Source of the DNA: a virus
Virus record (IMG/VR): IMGVR_UViG_3300045988_017695
Span: 1-5,120 of that record
Length of the DNA stretch: 5,120 nt
Reading direction: 5' to 3' (one strand)
Made by a program: the position numbers and the translations under genes. A model generated the notes under the pieces. It made no database searches. It was not told where the DNA came from and was given only the letters and a program-made list of their open reading frames with translations. Below, piece by piece: positions 1-5,120 of this stretch (position 1 is its first letter; every line of letters starts with the position of its first letter).

Positions 1-2
1 AT

Positions 3-719
3 GTGCCTGTCACGTACTATTCTGAAAATGATGACGGTGAAGCTCGTTCTGGTTTGACGCTTCGCGCTCGTGATCTTCAGCTTTTTATGAAACGTTTGAG
101 AAAGGAACATTCTAATGAGCGTTTACGCTTCTTTGCCTGTGGCGAGTATGGCTCTACTACTTATCGCCCTCATTATCACGCAATTATTTTTGGACTCACT
201 CTCAACGATCTGCGACCCTACAAACGTAGCCCCCAAAACTATGATTATTTCATTAGTGATTCTCTTACTAAGTGTTGGGGTCTCGGCTATGTTGTGGTAG
301 GTGCCGTGACATGGGAGACTTGCGCATATACTGCCCGATATATTATGAAGAAAGCCCTTGGTGAAGGTGCTGAGGTATATGAGCGTTTTAACATTGAGCC
401 TGAATTTGTGCGTATGTCTCGTAAGCCTGGTATTGCATATCAGTATTACGTTGATCATCCTGACTTGTATCAGTATGAATATATCAATCTTCCGACTGAT
501 AAAGGTCAGTTGAAATTTCGCCCGCCTCGGTATTATGACCGGCTTTTTGATCTCGATAATCCCGATCAGATGGCTAAGATAAAGGCCAAGCGTCAGCATG
601 CTGCTCTGGTAGATGCTCACAACAAGTCCCTGCAAACGTCCCTTATTGAGCCTGACCGTCTGGCAGTTGAAGAGGCTGCTTTGATGGCTCGCATAAAATC
701 TCTTGAAAGGAAGTTGTAA
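3..719 (+). CDS. VP4: Replication initiation protein VP4 (superfamily I rolling-circle Rep, phiX174 gpA-like), C-terminal 238 codons. The 5' part is at 4819..5065 and joins in frame across the circular junction; full length about 321 aa.
   Basis: Long + ORF. HUH motif PHYHAIIFG (His-Tyr-His codons at 171-179). Two-tyrosine catalytic motif AYTARYIMKKA (Tyr codons 327-329 and 339-341), diagnostic of Microviridae Rep. Frame is continuous with the ORF at the window end, because 5066-5120 equals 1-55. Confidence 0.9.
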   Translation: MPVTYYSENDDGEARSGLTLRARDLQLFMKRLRKEHSNERLRFFACGEYGSTTYRPHYHAIIFGLTLNDLRPYKRSPQNYDYFISDSLTKCWGLGYVVVGAVTWETCAYTARYIMKKALGEGAEVYERFNIEPEFVRMSRKPGIAYQYYVDHPDLYQYEYINLPTDKGQLKFRPPRYYDRLFDLDNPDQMAKIKAKRQHAALVDAHNKSLQTSLIEPDRLAVEEAALMARIKSLERKL

Positions 720-721
720 AA

Positions 722-835
722 ATGCGCAAGAAGACTAAGCCTATTTTGGACAACAAAATTTTTCGTCGCACCGCTGCTCACAGCAAGAAGATCAACATCG
801 ACCCTAAAATTTTTCGTGGAGGTATTAGACTGTGA
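722..835 (+). CDS. Small, highly basic DNA-binding/packaging peptide (gokushovirus VP8-like, functional analogue of phiX174 J), 37 aa: MRKKTKPILDNKIFRRTAAHSKKINIDPKIFRGGIRL
   Basis: ATG at 722 sits 2 nt after the VP4 stop (717-719) and is preceded by a purine-rich AAGGAAG stretch. The 37-aa product has 10 K/R against 2 D. Its size and position right after rep match microvirus J/VP8 peptides. It is absent from the ORF track only because it is short. TGA stop at 833-835. Confidence 0.55.
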   Translation: MRKKTKPILDNKIFRRTAAHSKKINIDPKIFRGGIRL

Positions 836-862
836 TTATTTGTGATTCTCCTGTTCTTGTTT

Positions 863-891
863 TTGATGATGATGTTTGGCCTTGTTATGAA
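863..891 (+). promoter_or_regulatory. Weak candidate promoter: TTGATG (863-868), 17-nt spacer, extended -10 TGtTATGAA (883-891), upstream of the 83-aa ORF
   Basis: Hexamer spacing of 17 nt with a TG extended -10 element. The -10 hexamer matches only 4 of 6, so this is weak. Confidence 0.2.
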
Positions 892-906
892 AGTGAGGAA
901 AATTGA

Positions 907-1158
907 ATGAAACTTGGACTTTATTCTATTAAGGACGCCAAAACCGGCTTTATGACCCCTGTGCTTGAGCAGGGCGACCCCGCTGCTCTTCGTAACTTCG
1001 CGCATGCTGTGAATCAGCCTGATTCTATCATGCATGATTGTCCCAATGATTTTTCCCTTTTCAAGGTTGCGAACTTCGATACCGATAAAGGTATCGATCC
1101 CGTGATCAGTCCTATTCTCATCGCTGATGCTTCGGAGGTGCTGCGCAATGAAAGATAA
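907..1158 (+). CDS. Hypothetical small acidic protein, 83 aa; by position a candidate VP5-like or accessory protein
   Basis: ATG at 907 lies 7 nt downstream of GAGGA (895-899). The ORF is in the genome's coding orientation. It is not a +1 overprint of another gene. TAA stop at 1156-1158 overlaps the start region of the next gene. Confidence 0.55.
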   Translation: MKLGLYSIKDAKTGFMTPVLEQGDPAALRNFAHAVNQPDSIMHDCPNDFSLFKVANFDTDKGIDPVISPILIADASEVLRNER

Positions 1159-1348
1159 GCTTATCTCTATTTTTGTCGCTTTTGTCCGTAAGACTTTTAC
1201 TAAGGAGCGTCTTCTCGATTTTATCGATGATCTCCTTGATATCTTCTATGACCGTTTTGCCGCTCCTTACGGTTGTGTTGACGGACGGTTTGTTGATCAG
1301 GAAGATGCTTTTGCTGATTTGAAGGAGGCTTGTGATAAAGATGTTTGA
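1148..1348 (+). CDS. Hypothetical small acidic protein, 66 aa (MKDKLISIFVAFVRKTFTKERLLDFIDDLLDIFYDRFAAPYGCVDGRFVDQEDAFADLKEACDKDV)
   Basis: ATG at 1148 is 7 nt after the strong SD GGAGGTG (1134-1140) and overlaps the upstream stop (ATGAAAGATAA), indicating translational coupling. The track's ATG at 1127 lies upstream of the SD and is less likely. The TGA stop (1346-1348) overlaps the VP3 start as ATGTTTGA. Confidence 0.5.
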   Translation: MKDKLISIFVAFVRKTFTKERLLDFIDDLLDIFYDRFAAPYGCVDGRFVDQEDAFADLKEACDKDV

Positions 1349-1832
1349 TACCCAGTATACTCCGCATAATCGCATCGCCGCTAATCCTGGTTCACCCGTT
1401 AAGGTGCTTTACGGCGGTAAGTATGACGCGAACGGTCGTGTTATTCTTGAGAAGAAAGGTGAAGAGAATCTGTATGACTATATCCAGTCTTTTCGCGATT
1501 CGGTTGATCTCAACGTTATCCTCGCCCGCTTCTCCAATGGTGACGTGGAAGCCCTTAATAAGGCTCAAGGCTTTTATGCAGATGTGTCCGATTTTCCTAA
1601 GAATATGGCCGATGCGCTTAATCGTATCAATCAGGCCGAAGAGATGTTTAAGGCTCTTCCGCTTGAGATTCGCCAGAAGTTTGACTGTTCTTTTGAGCAG
1701 TTTTTAGCTCAGTCTGGTACTGATGATTGGTTGTCTAAGATGGGCTTTGAAAGCTCTGCGCCGGTAGAGTCCGAGACCCCATCTGTGAAGGTTGAGCCTG
1801 ATGTTGTAAAGGAGATCAAGAATGAATCGTAA
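1341..1832 (+). CDS. VP3: VP3-like internal scaffolding protein, 163 aa (MFDTQYTPHNRIAANPGSPVKVLYGG...)
   Basis: A 150-170 aa ORF directly upstream of and overlapping the major capsid gene, as in gokushoviruses. ATG at 1341 is preceded by GAAGGAGG (1321-1328). The track's GTG at 1332 lies only 3 nt from that SD and is unlikely. TAA stop at 1830-1832 overlaps the VP1 start. Confidence 0.55.
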   Translation: MFDTQYTPHNRIAANPGSPVKVLYGGKYDANGRVILEKKGEENLYDYIQSFRDSVDLNVILARFSNGDVEALNKAQGFYADVSDFPKNMADALNRINQAEEMFKALPLEIRQKFDCSFEQFLAQSGTDDWLSKMGFESSAPVESETPSVKVEPDVVKEIKNES

Positions 1833-3510
1833 TGTTGAATCGCATTTTGCGCTGAATCCCACTCGCATTGATATGTCTCGTTCGACGTTTGATCGTTCGT
1901 CTTCTGTCAAGACCTCTTTCAATGTCGGTGATATTGTCCCTTTCTTCCTCGAAGAGGTTCTTCCCGGCGATACGTTCAATGTACGTACTTCGAAAGTTGT
2001 GCGTATGCAGACTCTGCTTACACCGATGATGGACAATGTTTACCTTGATTCGTATTTTTTCTTTGTTCCTAACCGGCTTGTTTGGAATCACTGGAAGGAG
2101 TTTAACGGTGAAAACACTGAAAGCGCGTGGATACCCACTACTGAGTATTCTGTACCTCAGATTACTTCGCCTTCCGCTGGTTGGTCTGTTGGTACTCTTG
2201 CTGATTATTTCGGCTTGCCTACAGGTGTTGGCGGTCTGAGCGTGTCCGCTCTTCCGTTCCGTGCGTATGCTCTCGTTATGAACGAGTGGTTCCGCGATCA
2301 GAATTTGCAAGATCCGCTCGTTGTTCCGGTTGATGATGCTACTGTTGCCGGTGTGAATACTGGTAACTTTGTTACCGATTGTGCTAAAGGCGGTTTGCCT
2401 TATATCGCTGCCAAGTATCACGACTATTTCACGAGCTGTCTCCCCAGCCCGCAGAAAGGCCCTGATGTTACGTTAAAGGTTGCTTCTCAGGATGATTTGC
2501 CGGTTGTTACAAAAGCGGTTGATTCTCCTTCATCTTCTTTTGCTGAGGGTCTCCGTCTTGGTGTTCTTGGTTCTTCTAATTGGTCTGAAAATGGCGGTTC
2601 TACTGTTCTTGGTATGAATGGTACTTTTACTGGTACTCGACCTGGTTTTGTTACTGATACTTCCGGTATTTCCGGTGGTTCGCTTGGTAATTGGGCTGTT
2701 GCTCCGTCTAACCTTTGGGCTATCAATTCTGGCAATGCTGTTGTTGCTACCATTAACCAACTTCGTATGGCATTCCAGATTCAAAAGCTTTATGAGCGTG
2801 ATGCGCGTGGCGGTACTCGTTATATTGAGGTGCTCAAATCTCATTTCGGTGTGACTTCTCCTGATGCTCGCTTGCAGCGTCCCGAGTATCTCGGTGGTAA
2901 TCGTGTGCCGATCAACGTTAACCAAGTCATTCAGCAGTCCGGTACCGGTGCCGGTGCTGATACTCCGCAGGGTACTGTTGTCGGTATGTCTCAGACTACG
3001 GACTCTAACCATGATTTTATTAAGTCCTTTACTGAGCACGGTTATATCATCGGTGTTATGGTTGCTCGCTATGATCATACCTATCAGCAGGGTATTGAGC
3101 GTCATTGGTCTCGTAAGACGCGCTTTGATTACTATTGGCCGGTCTTTGCTAACATTGGCGAGCAGGCTGTGCTTAATAAGGAAATTTTTGCGCAGGGTAC
3201 CGCAAAGGACAATGAAGTTTTTGGCTATCAAGAAGCTTGGTCTGATTATCGTTATAAGCCTAATCGCGTAACTGGTGAAATGCGTTCTGCTTATGAACTG
3301 TCTCTTGATGTTTGGCATTTGGCGGACGATTATGAGAGTCTTCCGTCACTGTCTGATAGTTGGATTCGTGAGGATAAGAATACTGTTGATCGTGTTCTTG
3401 CTGTCAAGTCTTCTGTGTCTGACCAGCTTTTTGCTGATATCTATGTTTCTAACCGCGCTACACGTCCGATGCCGCTGTATTCCGTCCCCGGCCTTATTGA
3501 CCATCACTAA
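1822..3510 (+). CDS. VP1: Major capsid protein VP1 (Microviridae F-protein family), 562 aa
   Basis: The N-terminus (MNRNVESHFALNPTRIDMSRSTFDRSSSVKTSFNVGDIVPFFLEEVLPGDTF) matches the conserved gokushovirus VP1 signature (RSTFDRSH..KTTFNAG.L.P...EVLPGDTF). Also present are the conserved INQLRMAFQIQKLYERDARGGTRYIE block and FFFVPNRLVW. SD GGAG (1811-1814) precedes ATG 1822. Confidence 0.95.
   Translation: MNRNVESHFALNPTRIDMSRSTFDRSSSVKTSFNVGDIVPFFLEEVLPGDTFNVRTSKVVRMQTLLTPMMDNVYLDSYFFFVPNRLVWNHWKEFNGENTESAWIPTTEYSVPQITSPSAGWSVGTLADYFGLPTGVGGLSVSALPFRAYALVMNEWFRDQNLQDPLVVPVDDATVAGVNTGNFVTDCAKGGLPYIAAKYHDYFTSCLPSPQKGPDVTLKVASQDDLPVVTKAVDSPSSSFAEGLRLGVLGSSNWSENGGSTVLGMNGTFTGTRPGFVTDTSGISGGSLGNWAVAPSNLWAINSGNAVVATINQLRMAFQIQKLYERDARGGTRYIEVLKSHFGVTSPDARLQRPEYLGGNRVPINVNQVIQQSGTGAGADTPQGTVVGMSQTTDSNHDFIKSFTEHGYIIGVMVARYDHTYQQGIERHWSRKTRFDYYWPVFANIGEQAVLNKEIFAQGTAKDNEVFGYQEAWSDYRYKPNRVTGEMRSAYELSLDVWHLADDYESLPSLSDSWIREDKNTVDRVLAVKSSVSDQLFADIYVSNRATRPMPLYSVPGLIDHH
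2455..2750 (+). other. Ser/Gly/Thr-rich hypervariable insertion loop of VP1 (threefold 'mushroom' protrusion region)
   Basis: The stretch KGPDVTLKVASQDD...SSNWSENGGSTVLGMNGTFTGTRPGFVTDTSGISGGSLGNWAVAPSNLWAINSGNAVVAT is low-complexity and G/S/T/N-rich. It is flanked by conserved capsid blocks and sits where the gokushovirus VP1 variable loop is expected. Confidence 0.6.
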
Positions 3511-3523
3511 ATATCATGCTGTA

Positions 3524-3551
3524 GTGGGGGGCAGTTGCCCCCCACTTTTTT
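3524..3551 (+). terminator. Rho-independent terminator between VP1 and VP2: stem GTGGGGGGC (3524-3532), loop AGTT, stem GCCCCCCAC (3537-3545), then TTTTTT (3546-3551)
   Basis: A perfect 9-bp G/C-rich stem, a 4-nt loop and a T6 run lie 14 nt after the VP1 stop. This resembles the partial terminators after the capsid genes of phiX174. Confidence 0.55.
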
Positions 3552-3565
3552 GAAAGGAGTTTTAC

Positions 3566-4417
3566 ATGTCTTATTTTTCCGAGGCTTTGAATACTGGTGC
3601 GAATCAGATCGCACAAATGCAGGGTATTGCTCAAGCAAATAATGCTTGGTCTGCTGGACAGGCTCAAATACAGCGCGAATGGCAGGAACAGCAGAATGCT
3701 AAGGCTATGGCTTTTAATCAGAGCGAGGCCGCTAAGAATCGTAACTGGCAGGAAATGCTATCAAATACTGCTCATCAGCGTGAAGTGCGTGATCTTATGG
3801 CTGCTGGTCTTAATCCTGTTTTGTCAGCTATGAATGGCAATGGTGCTTCCGTTGGCTCTGGTGCTACTGCTCAAGGTGTTACTTCTCAAGGTGCTAAAGG
3901 TGAAACGGATACTTCCGCTAATGGTGCTATTGCTAATCTACTTGGGTCTATTCTTTCTGCTCAGACTCAAATAGAGGCCGCTAATATCAACGCTAAGACA
4001 CAGGAAGCCGTTGCTGATAAGTATACTGCTATGGAAAGAATTGTTTCTGAGATCGCCGCCAGTGCCTCCCGTTATGGTGCTGATACGAGCGCGTCTGCTT
4101 CTCGTTATCATTCTGATCGTAGTTATGAGGCCTCCCGTTATGGTTCCGACCGTTCGGCTGCTGCTTCTATGTTTGGTTCGTCTTTGGCTTCCTCTGCGTC
4201 TCGTTATGCGTCTGATCAGGCCGCGGCTGCTTCTCGTTACGGTTCTGATATGTCCTATAAGCAGCTTAATGATTTTGGACGTGGTGAAACTTCGTCTTTG
4301 ATCGGCATGATTGCTAATCGTTTACCCGGTATCCTTGATGCTGCTAATAAGCGTACTGGTTTCTTTGGTACTAAGAAGTTTGGTAAAGATAAAAATCGTG
4401 TTGGCGGTTTTAGGTGA
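3566..4417 (+). CDS. VP2: Minor capsid / DNA pilot protein VP2, 283 aa
   Basis: SD AAGGAG (3554-3559) lies 6 nt before the ATG. The N-terminal region ...EAAKNRNWQEMLSNTAHQREVRDLMAAGLNPVLS matches the conserved gokushovirus VP2 motif (QE.MSNTA.QR...D...AGLNP.L). The composition is Ala/Ser/Gln-rich, and the gene follows VP1. Confidence 0.85.
   Translation: MSYFSEALNTGANQIAQMQGIAQANNAWSAGQAQIQREWQEQQNAKAMAFNQSEAAKNRNWQEMLSNTAHQREVRDLMAAGLNPVLSAMNGNGASVGSGATAQGVTSQGAKGETDTSANGAIANLLGSILSAQTQIEAANINAKTQEAVADKYTAMERIVSEIAASASRYGADTSASASRYHSDRSYEASRYGSDRSAAASMFGSSLASSASRYASDQAAAASRYGSDMSYKQLNDFGRGETSSLIGMIANRLPGILDAANKRTGFFGTKKFGKDKNRVGGFR
4058..4255 (+). repeat. Six in-frame tandem 33-nt (11-aa) repeats inside VP2, consensus A-[AS]-A-S-R-Y-G-S-D-x-S
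   Basis: The six units are ASASRYGADTS, ASASRYHSDRS, YEASRYGSDRS, AAASMFGSSLA, SSASRYASDQA and AAASRYGSDMS. The nucleotide units differ by synonymous changes (for example tat/tac and gcc tcc/gct tct), so the repeat is old and conserved rather than recent. Confidence 0.85.
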
Positions 4418-4510
4418 GTTTTGATCTTGTCTTTGTGCATTTTGTCGGTTTTATCCGGTTGCCTGGTCAAGCGTTTTTTGTTTGAAATTAACAAAATTTC
4501 TTTTATAAAG

Positions 4511-4555
4511 GAAGCGAAGCGAGTCGCGCCCCTGCGCCAAGCTACGCTTCTTTTT
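4511..4555 (+). terminator. Terminator-like GC-rich hairpin downstream of VP2: arm GAAGCGAAGC (4511-4520) pairs with GCTACGCTTC (4541-4550) with 1 mismatch, inner GCGC/GCGC stem, then TTTTT (4551-4555)
   Basis: An imperfect inverted repeat followed by a T5 run lies about 95 nt after the VP2 stop. Confidence 0.4.
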
Positions 4556-4574
4556 GCACTCCTTGCCAAAATGG

Positions 4575-4596
4575 TATGCAGTCTCTTTTCTGCATA
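4575..4596. repeat. Small hairpin: TATGCAG (4575-4581), 8-nt loop, CTGCATA (4590-4596)
   Basis: A 7-bp perfect inverted repeat in the noncoding region. Confidence 0.35.
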
Positions 4597-4624
4597 AAAT
4601 CTCGGCTGCCGTATCGCATGCCGA

Positions 4625-4664
4625 ACTCGTGCCCATTACTCTTCTTGATGTAATGGGCACGAGT
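4625..4664. repeat. Perfect 15-bp inverted repeat (ACTCGTGCCCATTAC / GTAATGGGCACGAGT) with a 10-nt loop TCTTCTTGAT; candidate replication origin or primosome/packaging hairpin
   Basis: Arms are 4625-4639 and 4650-4664, the loop is 4640-4649. This is the longest perfect palindrome in the window. It lies in the 400-nt intergenic region about 155 nt upstream of rep. The loop contains CTTGAT. Confidence 0.8.
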
Positions 4665-4762
4665 GACACCAAGACACGCAAATTATCATTTACTACTTTA
4701 AAATAGCTATCTAAAATATACATATATCCTTGTATAAAATATTAAAACTAAAAAAAACTATA

Positions 4763-4791
4763 TTGACAAATATAAAATATTTTTTTATTAT
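4763..4791 (+). promoter_or_regulatory. Sigma70-type promoter for VP4: -35 TTGACA (4763-4768), 17-nt spacer, -10 TATTAT (4786-4791), embedded in a roughly 120-nt AT-rich tract (4685-4800) with an A8 run
   Basis: The -35 hexamer is consensus, the -10 matches 5 of 6 and the spacing is optimal. The predicted transcript start is about 4798-4800, just before the SD and GTG start of rep. Confidence 0.5.
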
Positions 4792-4803
4792 ATTAAATAT
4801 AAG

Positions 4804-4809
4804 TGAGGT
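4804..4809 (+). promoter_or_regulatory. Ribosome-binding site GAGGTG for VP4
   Basis: It lies 9 nt upstream of the in-frame GTG at 4819. The in-frame TGA at 4804-4806 closes the frame upstream, so GTG 4819 is the first possible start. Confidence 0.5.
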
Positions 4810-4818
4810 GTTTGCATT

Positions 4819-5120
4819 GTGTCTTGCTTTCATCCCATGTTGGCTGTCAGTACTGGCTTGAATTCTAACGGCAAGCGCGATATTAAATTCGTTTCTGGCC
4901 CCACTGAGTGGGAATCTTACCCGCCTAACGCCCGTCTCAAGATTCCTTGCGGTCGCTGTGTTGGTTGTCGTCTTGAGCGTTCCCGTCAATGGGCTAATCG
5001 CTGTATGCTTGAATTGCAGTACCATGAATCAAGTTATTTTGTTACGTTGACTTATGATGATGAGCATGTGCCTGTCACGTACTATTCTGAAAATGATGAC
5101 GGTGAAGCTCGTTCTGGTTT
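4819..5120 (+). CDS. VP4: Replication initiation protein VP4, N-terminal part (GTG start). It runs off the window end and continues at 3..719 (true junction after 5065).
   Basis: The translation MSCFHPMLAVSTGLNSNGKRDIKFVSGPTEWESYPPNARLKIPCGRCVGCRLERSRQWANRCMLELQYHESSYFVTLTYDDEH resembles conserved gokushovirus Rep N-termini (MACxHP..A). It carries a CxxCxxC motif (4948-4968) and RCR motif I FVTLTYDD (5038-5061). The ATG at 4837 is an alternative start but would drop the conserved SCFHP residues. Confidence 0.8.
   Translation, partial: MSCFHPMLAVSTGLNSNGKRDIKFVSGPTEWESYPPNARLKIPCGRCVGCRLERSRQWANRCMLELQYHESSYFVTLTYDDEHVPVTYYSENDDGEARSG
5066..5120. repeat. 55-nt terminal redundancy, an exact copy of 1..55, marking circular closure of a 5065-nt genome
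   Basis: Direct string identity. The repeat lies inside the rep coding sequence and preserves the reading frame. Confidence 0.95.

Follow-up and report, generated by a model that had tools for sequence, protein, structure and literature searches.

VP2, the DNA pilot protein homologue of a gokushovirus-type microvirus, contains in its C-terminal half an array of six tandem 11-residue (hendecad) units. We analysed this array in the IMG/VR virus record IMGVR_UViG_3300045988_017695, positions 1 to 5,120, a stretch of 5,120 nucleotides (nt) which as a whole will be referred to as the window. Across the VP2 family, the helix predicted to carry these units changes its length in steps of whole units. 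The array may well be the length-modular shaft of an oligomeric helical assembly of VP2 for genome delivery, in which the helices would pack via a stripe of small residues, and this is the reading that we favour, with moderate confidence. An earlier note on the same DNA, made from the letters alone, had suggested that the units are the segment from which the pilot protein builds a DNA-translocation tube, as the H protein of phiX174 does, and that repeat number sets the tube length needed to span the host envelope. Its premise on H, the predicted helix with its 11/3 period, the selection on the protein and the variation in whole units all held up; a significant sequence similarity to H, an H-like composition, a general occurrence in gokushoviruses and a simple link to the envelope did not.

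The six-unit array in VP2

The array lies at window positions 4058-4255, corresponding to amino acids (aa) 165-230 of VP2, and consists of six in-frame 33-nt units, position 4058 being the first base of codon 165. The earlier note had both coordinates and frame exactly right. At a lag of 11 residues, 30 of 55 positions in the array are identical. In 5000 shuffles of the array region the highest value over all lags was 22, and with the whole protein shuffled it did not exceed 16.

At the DNA level the array was not reported by Tandem Repeats Finder, and pairwise nucleotide identity among the six units ranges from 42 to 70%. Where two units share an amino acid, the codon is the same in 46 of 94 cases, as compared to 50.4 expected from the genome's own codon usage. 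The units in this genome share no DNA similarity beyond the protein requirement, which bears out the synonymous divergence noted earlier. Because codon sharing between units is not above the expectation from genome usage, the units must be old, with only the peptide motif having been kept.

Predicted structure of VP2

The structure of VP2 was predicted with AlphaFold2 as a monomer, using a 150-sequence alignment of homologues that are 38-96% identical to the query. In this prediction the array, at a predicted local distance difference test (pLDDT) value of about 95, occupies the distal two-thirds of a continuous helix of 113 residues (helix 2), whose length of approximately 170 Å was computed at a rise of 1.5 Å per residue. 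The region is thus predicted to be helical and not disordered, as the coiled-coil idea in the earlier note supposes.

The periodicity of helix 2 was described by Fourier analysis. Side-chain volume has strong power at a period of 3.67 residues, i.e. 11/3, which none of 2000 shuffles reached (p < 5e-4), and no power at the heptad period of 3.5. The signal at 3.67 residues stays in phase when the upstream part of helix 2 is added. Hydropathy shows moderate power at the same period (p = 0.006), far weaker than the volume signal. The 11-residue spacing of the sequence consequently fits a helix with a structural period of 11/3.

On an 11/3 wheel of the family consensus, positions 3, 7, 11, 4, 8 and 1 make up a stripe of small residues that spans 165° and is occupied, in this order, by Ala, Gly/Ala, Ser/Ala, Ser/Thr, Ala/Ser and Ala. 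The opposite face displays Arg5, Asp9, Tyr6 and two variable positions, with an Arg5-Asp9 ladder and a Tyr6 ladder running along it. The spacing of Arg5 and Asp9 allows ion pairs from i to i+4 and from i to i+7. A Foldseek search of the PDB with the VP2 model gave no match, because long single helices are uninformative.

A spacing of 11 residues can also be seen elsewhere in VP2. Helix 1 contains an aromatic ladder, W28-W39-F50-W61, with exact 11-residue spacing (aa 28-61, window 3647-3748), and in the VP2 alignment A1 both F50 and W61 are invariant or close to it. When VP2 is written in rows of 11, a single register can be followed from roughly aa 11 through to aa 230, and most rows begin with Ala.

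Length steps across the VP2 family

VP2 homologues number in the thousands, and 150 VP2 representatives of 50%-identity clusters were surveyed for periodicity. The top self-similarity lag was 11 in 78 of these proteins and 22 in 33, together 111 of 150 (74%); after shuffling, as a control, even the most frequent top lag accounted for at most 11 of the 150. The family consensus, drawn from 416 distinct units, 98% of which have Tyr or Phe at position 6, reads A-A/S-A-S-R/K-Y-G/A-A/S-D-x-S/A, and ASRY-type units are present in VP2s that are only 40-50% identical overall. Relatives at least 72% identical have 5-10 units (mode 6) and protein lengths that step by 11 (273/283/294/305/316), while relatives from IMG/VR have 1 to 11 units. 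Counting the repeats in relatives, as had been proposed in the earlier note, thus shows variation in whole units.

Helix length was measured as the number of residues from the ADKY anchor (aa 150-153) to the helix-ending [FY]P motif, which is DFG in this clade. Among 59 diverse VP2s this distance ranges from 15 to 147 residues. It equals 3 modulo 11 in 32 of them and 10 modulo 11 in 18, i.e. 50 of the 59 (85%) fall into two classes (chi-square versus uniform, p = 4e-37), which lie seven residues, or one heptad length, apart. The distribution of the same 59 distances modulo 7 is flat, and decoy downstream anchors gave no comparable two-class concentration. The distinct VP2s from IMG/VR fall into the same two classes in 21 of 21 cases.

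Altogether, helix length varies about tenfold, essentially only in whole three-turn modules. This is as expected if azimuthal register is preserved, for example in a helix that is packed against partners along its whole length. The repeat is ancient and variable in copy number, with strict conservation of its register across a large gokushovirus clade.

Selection and turnover of the repeat

In orthologous comparisons, the ratio of nonsynonymous to synonymous substitution rates (dN/dS) in the array is 0.06-0.11, about equal to that in the rest of VP2, and the array is under purifying selection. Four positions of the unit can vary freely, so that the corresponding ratio of polymorphisms (pN/pS) between units of the same array told us little, and orthologous comparisons were used instead. 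In a relative (P0188) the six DSARAASKYSx units have stayed nearly the same in spite of numerous synonymous differences. Together with codon sharing at chance level, these observations uphold the earlier idea that selection acts on the protein.

In other relatives the array shows signs of recent change. Pairs of units are identical at 32/33 or 33/33 nt in L002, L015, L021, L022 and L058, and therefore arrays change by 33-nt tandem duplication. The earlier view that the units are not a product of recent slippage consequently applies to this genome but not to these relatives.

When the window is compared to L008 and L010, synonymous divergence (dS) is 0.23-0.38 in the array versus 0.43-1.4 in the VP2 flanks. 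Gene conversion between units, a constraint on codons or simply small numbers could account for this lower value in the array.

An overlapping gene was considered as the cause of the repeat and rejected. A hydrophobic, Leu/Val-rich open reading frame (ORF) of 96 aa at 4011-4301, in the +1 frame relative to VP2, overlaps the array, and relatives have 1-3 stops there. No stop can arise in this frame from the codons for Ala, Ser, Arg, Gly, Asp and Tyr, which is the only reason why it is open, and we regard the ORF as a compositional by-product and not as a gene. In two public VP2 homologues (P0123 and P0125) the VP2-like sequence is replaced, from the array position or shortly before it, by Leu/Val/Pro-rich sequence which resembles the +1-frame product of the window; these could be assembly errors or real frameshift variants at the repeat.

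Hosts and envelope type

In a host scan with one genome per bacterial species, the closest relatives were prophages in Clostridia genomes. The first (L088) resides on a 177-kb contig of the isolate Oscillibacter sp. PC13 and has a VP1 and a VP2 that are each 71% identical to those of the window. Others were found in Muriventricola aceti, a member of the Oscillospiraceae (L089), and in a metagenome-assembled genome of the Peptostreptococcaceae (L091). Additionally, an 8-unit relative (P0119, locus L130) adjoins an SLH-domain protein, a tyrosine integrase and a YchF gene on a 90-kb contig, the YchF being 89% identical to an Oscillibacter YchF. Because of the relatives integrated in Oscillospiraceae and of these contig neighbours, a temperate lifestyle with hosts among the Oscillospiraceae (class Clostridia) is most likely for the lineage.

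Among complete loci, 3 of 10 labelled as monoderm and 0 of 22 labelled as diderm have at least two ASRY units, and the loci with such units are all Clostridia-associated, in a comparison of unit number with envelope that is confounded by phylogeny. The shortest VP2s (111-140 aa) are found in other Clostridia-associated loci. As to the Oscillibacter-linked prophages, there are 3 units in one and 8 in the other.

Weighing the possible roles of the array

The favoured reading, a length-modular shaft, would work as follows. The six units would make up the distal two-thirds of a single, very long alpha-helix of VP2 (aa 117-229). Given the hendecad periodicity of 11/3, each unit would add exactly three turns, about 16.5 Å at 1.5 Å per residue, without rotating what follows. 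The small-residue stripe would serve as the packing face between helices, and the resulting VP2 assembly for delivery of single-stranded DNA (ssDNA) would be a tube like that of phiX174 H, or else a bundle or stalk. The array would lengthen and shorten by 33-nt duplication and deletion. In favour of this reading are the periodicity that shuffling does not reproduce, the confident helix 2 with a length comparable to that of the H tube, the in-phase 11/3 volume signal, the family consensus and the prevalence of lags 11 and 22, the two modulo-11 classes of helix length, the variation in whole units with fresh duplications in relatives, the low dN/dS, and a confident helix that is longer in a 10-unit relative. 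Oligomerisation, the formation of a tube and the face that would line a lumen are the parts that we infer.

Several observations weigh against this reading. Firstly, there is the comparison with phiX174 (PDB 4JPP/4JPN; Sun et al. 2014; Roznowski et al. 2020, PMC7354561). In H, three hendecads are followed by a kinked transition and then by eleven heptads, and residues 151-271 (121 residues) form a decameric tube 170 Å long, the lining of which is mostly Asn, Gln and Arg. What the earlier note had taken as its premise, 11-residue and heptad repeats in a decameric tube, is therefore correct for H. The best match of the VP2 family profile in the PDB was indeed the H tube (4JPP), at a non-significant E of 0.31. 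With hhalign, VP2 135-172 was aligned to H 151-188, exactly hendecads 1-3 and the transition, at a probability of 2.5%, which is not significant, and a focused profile (A3), made from the N-terminal part of helix 2, repeated this register at 1.8%. In a PDB search the focused profile did not retrieve 4JPP, and because of this the claim of homology to H stays weak. In the non-significant alignment, the Gln 'a' positions of H fall on the centre of the VP2 small-residue stripe, where Ser replaces Gln, a placement which is suggestive and speaks for the shaft reading, although the link to H is not statistically significant.

Secondly, the composition argues for a chemistry of the array that differs from that of the H tube. 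The VP2 array (aa 165-230), with its Arg-Asp and Tyr ladders, consists of 61% Ala/Ser/Gly, 12% Asn/Gln/Arg, 12% Glu/Lys/Arg and 6% large hydrophobic residues, and is not rich in Gln, Asn and Arg; in the H tube (aa 151-271) Ala/Ser/Gly amount to 16%, Asn/Gln/Arg to 30% and large hydrophobic residues to 21%, the last being a conventional content. Helix 1 of VP2 (aa 2-79), with 29%, 33% and 21% for the same three classes, is closer to the H tube than the array is. Because its 33% Asn/Gln/Arg resembles the H tube, helix 1 may be the better candidate for a DNA-contacting surface. This VP2 has no hydrophobic N-terminal segment, unlike H and the VP2s of cultured gokushoviruses: its maximum 19-residue Kyte-Doolittle mean is 0.91 (aa 121-139), whereas maxima of 1.36-1.96 occur at or near the N-terminus in H, EC6098, phiMH2K and Chp2. 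Moreover, neither such units nor a significant lag-11 signal are present in the cultured gokushovirus VP2s (EC6098, Chp2 and phiMH2K). The 11-residue periodicity that the earlier note expected in relatives is thus found in most of the survey and fails for these three, and the array is, on this account, a lineage-specific elaboration and not a universal requirement of pilot proteins.

Lastly, the structure prediction is that of a monomer, which cannot show a tube. For a 10-unit relative the confident helix grew to 128 residues, as compared to 113, reaching aa 244, and the last three units were of low confidence and non-helical, perhaps via the thin alignment there. As to envelope type, we find no simple relation to unit number, because Oscillibacter-linked prophages have 3 versus 8 units and because the shortest VP2s are found in other Clostridia loci; these same counts speak against a simple envelope link as drawn in the earlier note.

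The alternative that survives best, although we consider it unlikely, is that the array is a monomeric rigid spacer, i.e. a single alpha-helix (SAH) that holds the conserved N-terminal domain at a set distance from the basic C-terminal tail, without being a tube wall itself. Such a helix would be stabilised by a salt-bridge ladder of Arg5-Asp9 (i to i+4) and Asp9-Arg16 (i to i+7) pairs. A confident isolated helix is what the monomer prediction gives, the Arg/Asp ladder on one face is regular, hydrophobic residues are scarce and array length is highly variable. SAH domains, however, are rich in Glu, Lys and Arg, and Ser and Gly are poor helix formers. With its high content of Ala, Ser and Gly and so little Glu, Lys and Arg, the array departs from an SAH-type composition even though Arg5-Asp9 pairs are present, and as an unsupported helix it is unlikely to be stable. 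A spacer would also leave the strict small-residue stripe, the conservation of Tyr6 and the quantisation modulo 11 unexplained.

Less probable still is that the array binds surfaces as an 11/3 amphipathic helix, like those of alpha-synuclein, apolipoproteins, perilipins or LEA proteins, and would lie flat on the membrane or cell wall during penetration. An 11-residue periodicity is a hallmark of lipid-binding helices, hydropathy does have power at the period of 3.67 residues, and a pilot protein needs to engage the host membrane. However, the 'apolar' face of the array consists of Ala, Gly and Ser with hardly any Leu, Ile, Val or Phe, so that a hydrophobic face is missing; side-chain volume gives a far stronger signal than hydropathy, and the Lys flanks typical of class A helices are absent.

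We give a similarly low probability to the array being an internal ssDNA-contacting element, in which periodic Arg and Tyr would bind or organise the packaged or transiting genome. Arg and Tyr are typical ligands of ssDNA, and each unit has one Arg/Lys and one Tyr, both highly conserved. The H lumen of phiX174 likewise touches DNA via guanidinium and amide groups (PMC7354561). The net charge of the array, on the other hand, is only about +1 over its 66 residues, each Arg being paired with an Asp, and DNA contact could be a sub-function of the shaft or tube rather than a rival to it.

That the array is a disordered linker, or low-complexity sequence left by replication slippage and neutral in function, is strongly disfavoured and very improbable: although copy number varies and relatives contain fresh 33-nt duplications, the protein motif is kept without residual DNA similarity among the units of this genome and is conserved in proteins 40-50% identical, dN/dS is low, the predicted helix is confident and length is quantised modulo 11. 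In conclusion, these four alternatives agree less well than the length-modular shaft with the conserved stripe and the modulo-11 quantisation.

The shaft can be extended to a more far-reaching proposal, which we regard as rather doubtful. Here, the array would be an evolvable molecular ruler that changes the length of the DNA-delivery conduit in steps of 16.5 Å without breaking the packing register, letting temperate Oscillospiraceae gokushoviruses match the envelope thickness of their strains, with a packing chemistry of small residues, Tyr and Arg-Asp that is distinct from the Gln-lined phiX174 tube. Oscillospiraceae belong to the Clostridia and carry S-layers and thick walls, and strain-level differences in S-layer or wall thickness are a possible correlate of unit number. 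To our knowledge, there is no cultured model for how a tailless microvirus crosses a Clostridia-type envelope, and this lineage could show it. Three-turn module steps in a pilot helix would be a direct experimental handle on conduit length versus infectivity, and the quantisation of length modulo 11 is a clean natural example of selection on helical register.

Genome context and other features

Gokushoviruses are among the most abundant ssDNA phages of guts and waters, and their DNA delivery is known only via the analogy to phiX174. The whole window is a complete gokushovirus-type microvirus genome, in which each gene was identified by Pfam and PHROG matches. Because of a 55-nt direct repeat at both termini (window 1-55 and 5066-5120), the genome is circular, with 5065 nt. 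The gene order is VP4-VP5-VP3-VP1-VP2, where VP4 (replication) spans the contig junction, VP3 is the scaffold and VP1 is the capsid (1822-3510); Pfam matches comprise Phage_F (VP1), Chlamy_scaf, Phage_ORF5 and REP_ORF2-G2P. The closest GenBank record is a Microviridae genome from pig faeces, with 88% identity.

By its sequence matches, ORF 3566-4417 is identified as a homologue of the gokushovirus VP2 pilot protein. It matches PHROG 5158 (E 6e-98) as well as ten PHROGs labelled 'pilot protein for DNA ejection' (E down to 8e-24), and its fold matches in BFVD are Microviridae pilot proteins ('DNA pilot protein VP2'). The gene lies directly 3' of the major capsid gene VP1, as in gokushovirus-type genomes. 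A tblastn search with VP2 gave 1030 phage records, with VP2 or DNA pilot protein annotation among the matches listed. Scans of the curated libraries Pfam and NCBIfam returned no family for VP2.

The features of VP2 are collected in Table 1. The Gly/Ser-rich loop contains most of the invariant columns of alignment A1. It also harbours a 15-nt tandem repeat, GGTGCTACTGCTCAA, at window 3860-3896 (2.5 copies, 86% matches), which encodes the 5-residue units GATAQ / GVTSQ / GAKGE. Downstream of VP2, a GC-rich inverted repeat lies at window 4510-4550 in a non-coding region of about 700 nt; in a terminator scan it has a terminator-like score on the minus strand only.

Table 1. Features of VP2 with their window coordinates.
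Feature	Window coordinates	Strand	Basis and remarks
VP2 (DNA pilot protein homologue), 283 aa	3566..4417	+	ORF list; PHROG; BFVD
Predicted helix 1, aa 2-79, Asn/Gln/Arg-rich, conserved	3569..3802	+	AlphaFold2, pLDDT 74-85
Conserved AGLNP...GNGA..SGATA Gly/Ser-rich loop, aa 80-116	3803..3913	+	AlphaFold2, non-helical, low pLDDT
Predicted continuous alpha-helix 2, aa 117-229, 113 residues, ~170 Å	3914..4252	+	AlphaFold2, pLDDT 87-96 over aa 130-220
Upstream anchor ADKY, aa 150-153	4013..4024	+	A150 nearly invariant (alignment A1); helix-length measurement
Hendecad unit 1, ASASRYGADTS	4058..4090	+	Translation
Hendecad unit 2, ASASRYHSDRS	4091..4123	+	Translation
Hendecad unit 3, YEASRYGSDRS	4124..4156	+	Translation
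Hendecad unit 4, AAASMFGSSLA (most divergent, M-F instead of R-Y)	4157..4189	+	Translation
Hendecad unit 5, SSASRYASDQA	4190..4222	+	Translation
Hendecad unit 6, AAASRYGSDMS	4223..4255	+	Translation
Downstream anchor YKQLNDFGRGE, aa 231-241 (corresponds to [FY]P in other VP2s; marks helix end)	4256..4288	+	AlphaFold2, helix ends at aa 229
C-terminal tail, aa 242-283, basic	4289..4414	+	AlphaFold2, pLDDT <55; net charge +7 over aa 231-283

Comparison with known systems

In our full-text searches, only the phiX174 paper was found to deal with hendecads or repeats in Microviridae pilot proteins, and a description of the present array was not found. Both VP2 and H are pilot proteins of Microviridae, and in each a single helix exceeds 110 residues and measures about 170 Å, as a prediction in the case of VP2; 11-residue (11/3) repeats occur in helix 2 as well as in H. 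The larger part of the H tube, however, is heptad (7/2), whereas helix 2 lacks a heptad signal, and copy number varies among VP2 arrays while no such variation is described for the H tube in PMC7354561.

The VP2s of the cultured gokushoviruses EC6098, Chp2 and phiMH2K share with the present protein the core NRxWQExMSNTAHQRE...AGLNP, the Gly-rich loop and the position of the gene. They differ in being shorter (186-259 aa), in having no ASRY-type unit (best position-specific scoring matrix scores below 0) and in possessing an N-terminal hydrophobic segment.

Outside the Microviridae, the lipid-binding 11-mer helices of alpha-synuclein, apolipoprotein A-I, perilipins and group 3 LEA proteins resemble the array in their tandem 11/3 units and straight stripe; in the array there is no true hydrophobic face, and the stripe is set by side-chain size and not by hydrophobicity. 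Ruler proteins such as the phage tape-measure proteins and YscP of the injectisome are similar in that helical length shifts by duplication and deletion of repeats. They differ in that no structure with a VP2-dependent length has been observed, so that a ruler role of VP2 is hypothetical.

Finally, right-handed hendecad and pentadecad coiled-coil stalks are known from tetrabrachion and from trimeric autotransporter adhesins, the stalks of which have YxD motifs. The array motif is Y-x-x-D and not YxD, and these proteins are unrelated to VP2 and have another function. What they have in common with the array is a non-heptad period, a composition of polar and small residues and periodic Tyr and Asp. 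Such stalks are rigid rods whose length is given by repeat number, and the array of VP2 would be a rod of this kind.

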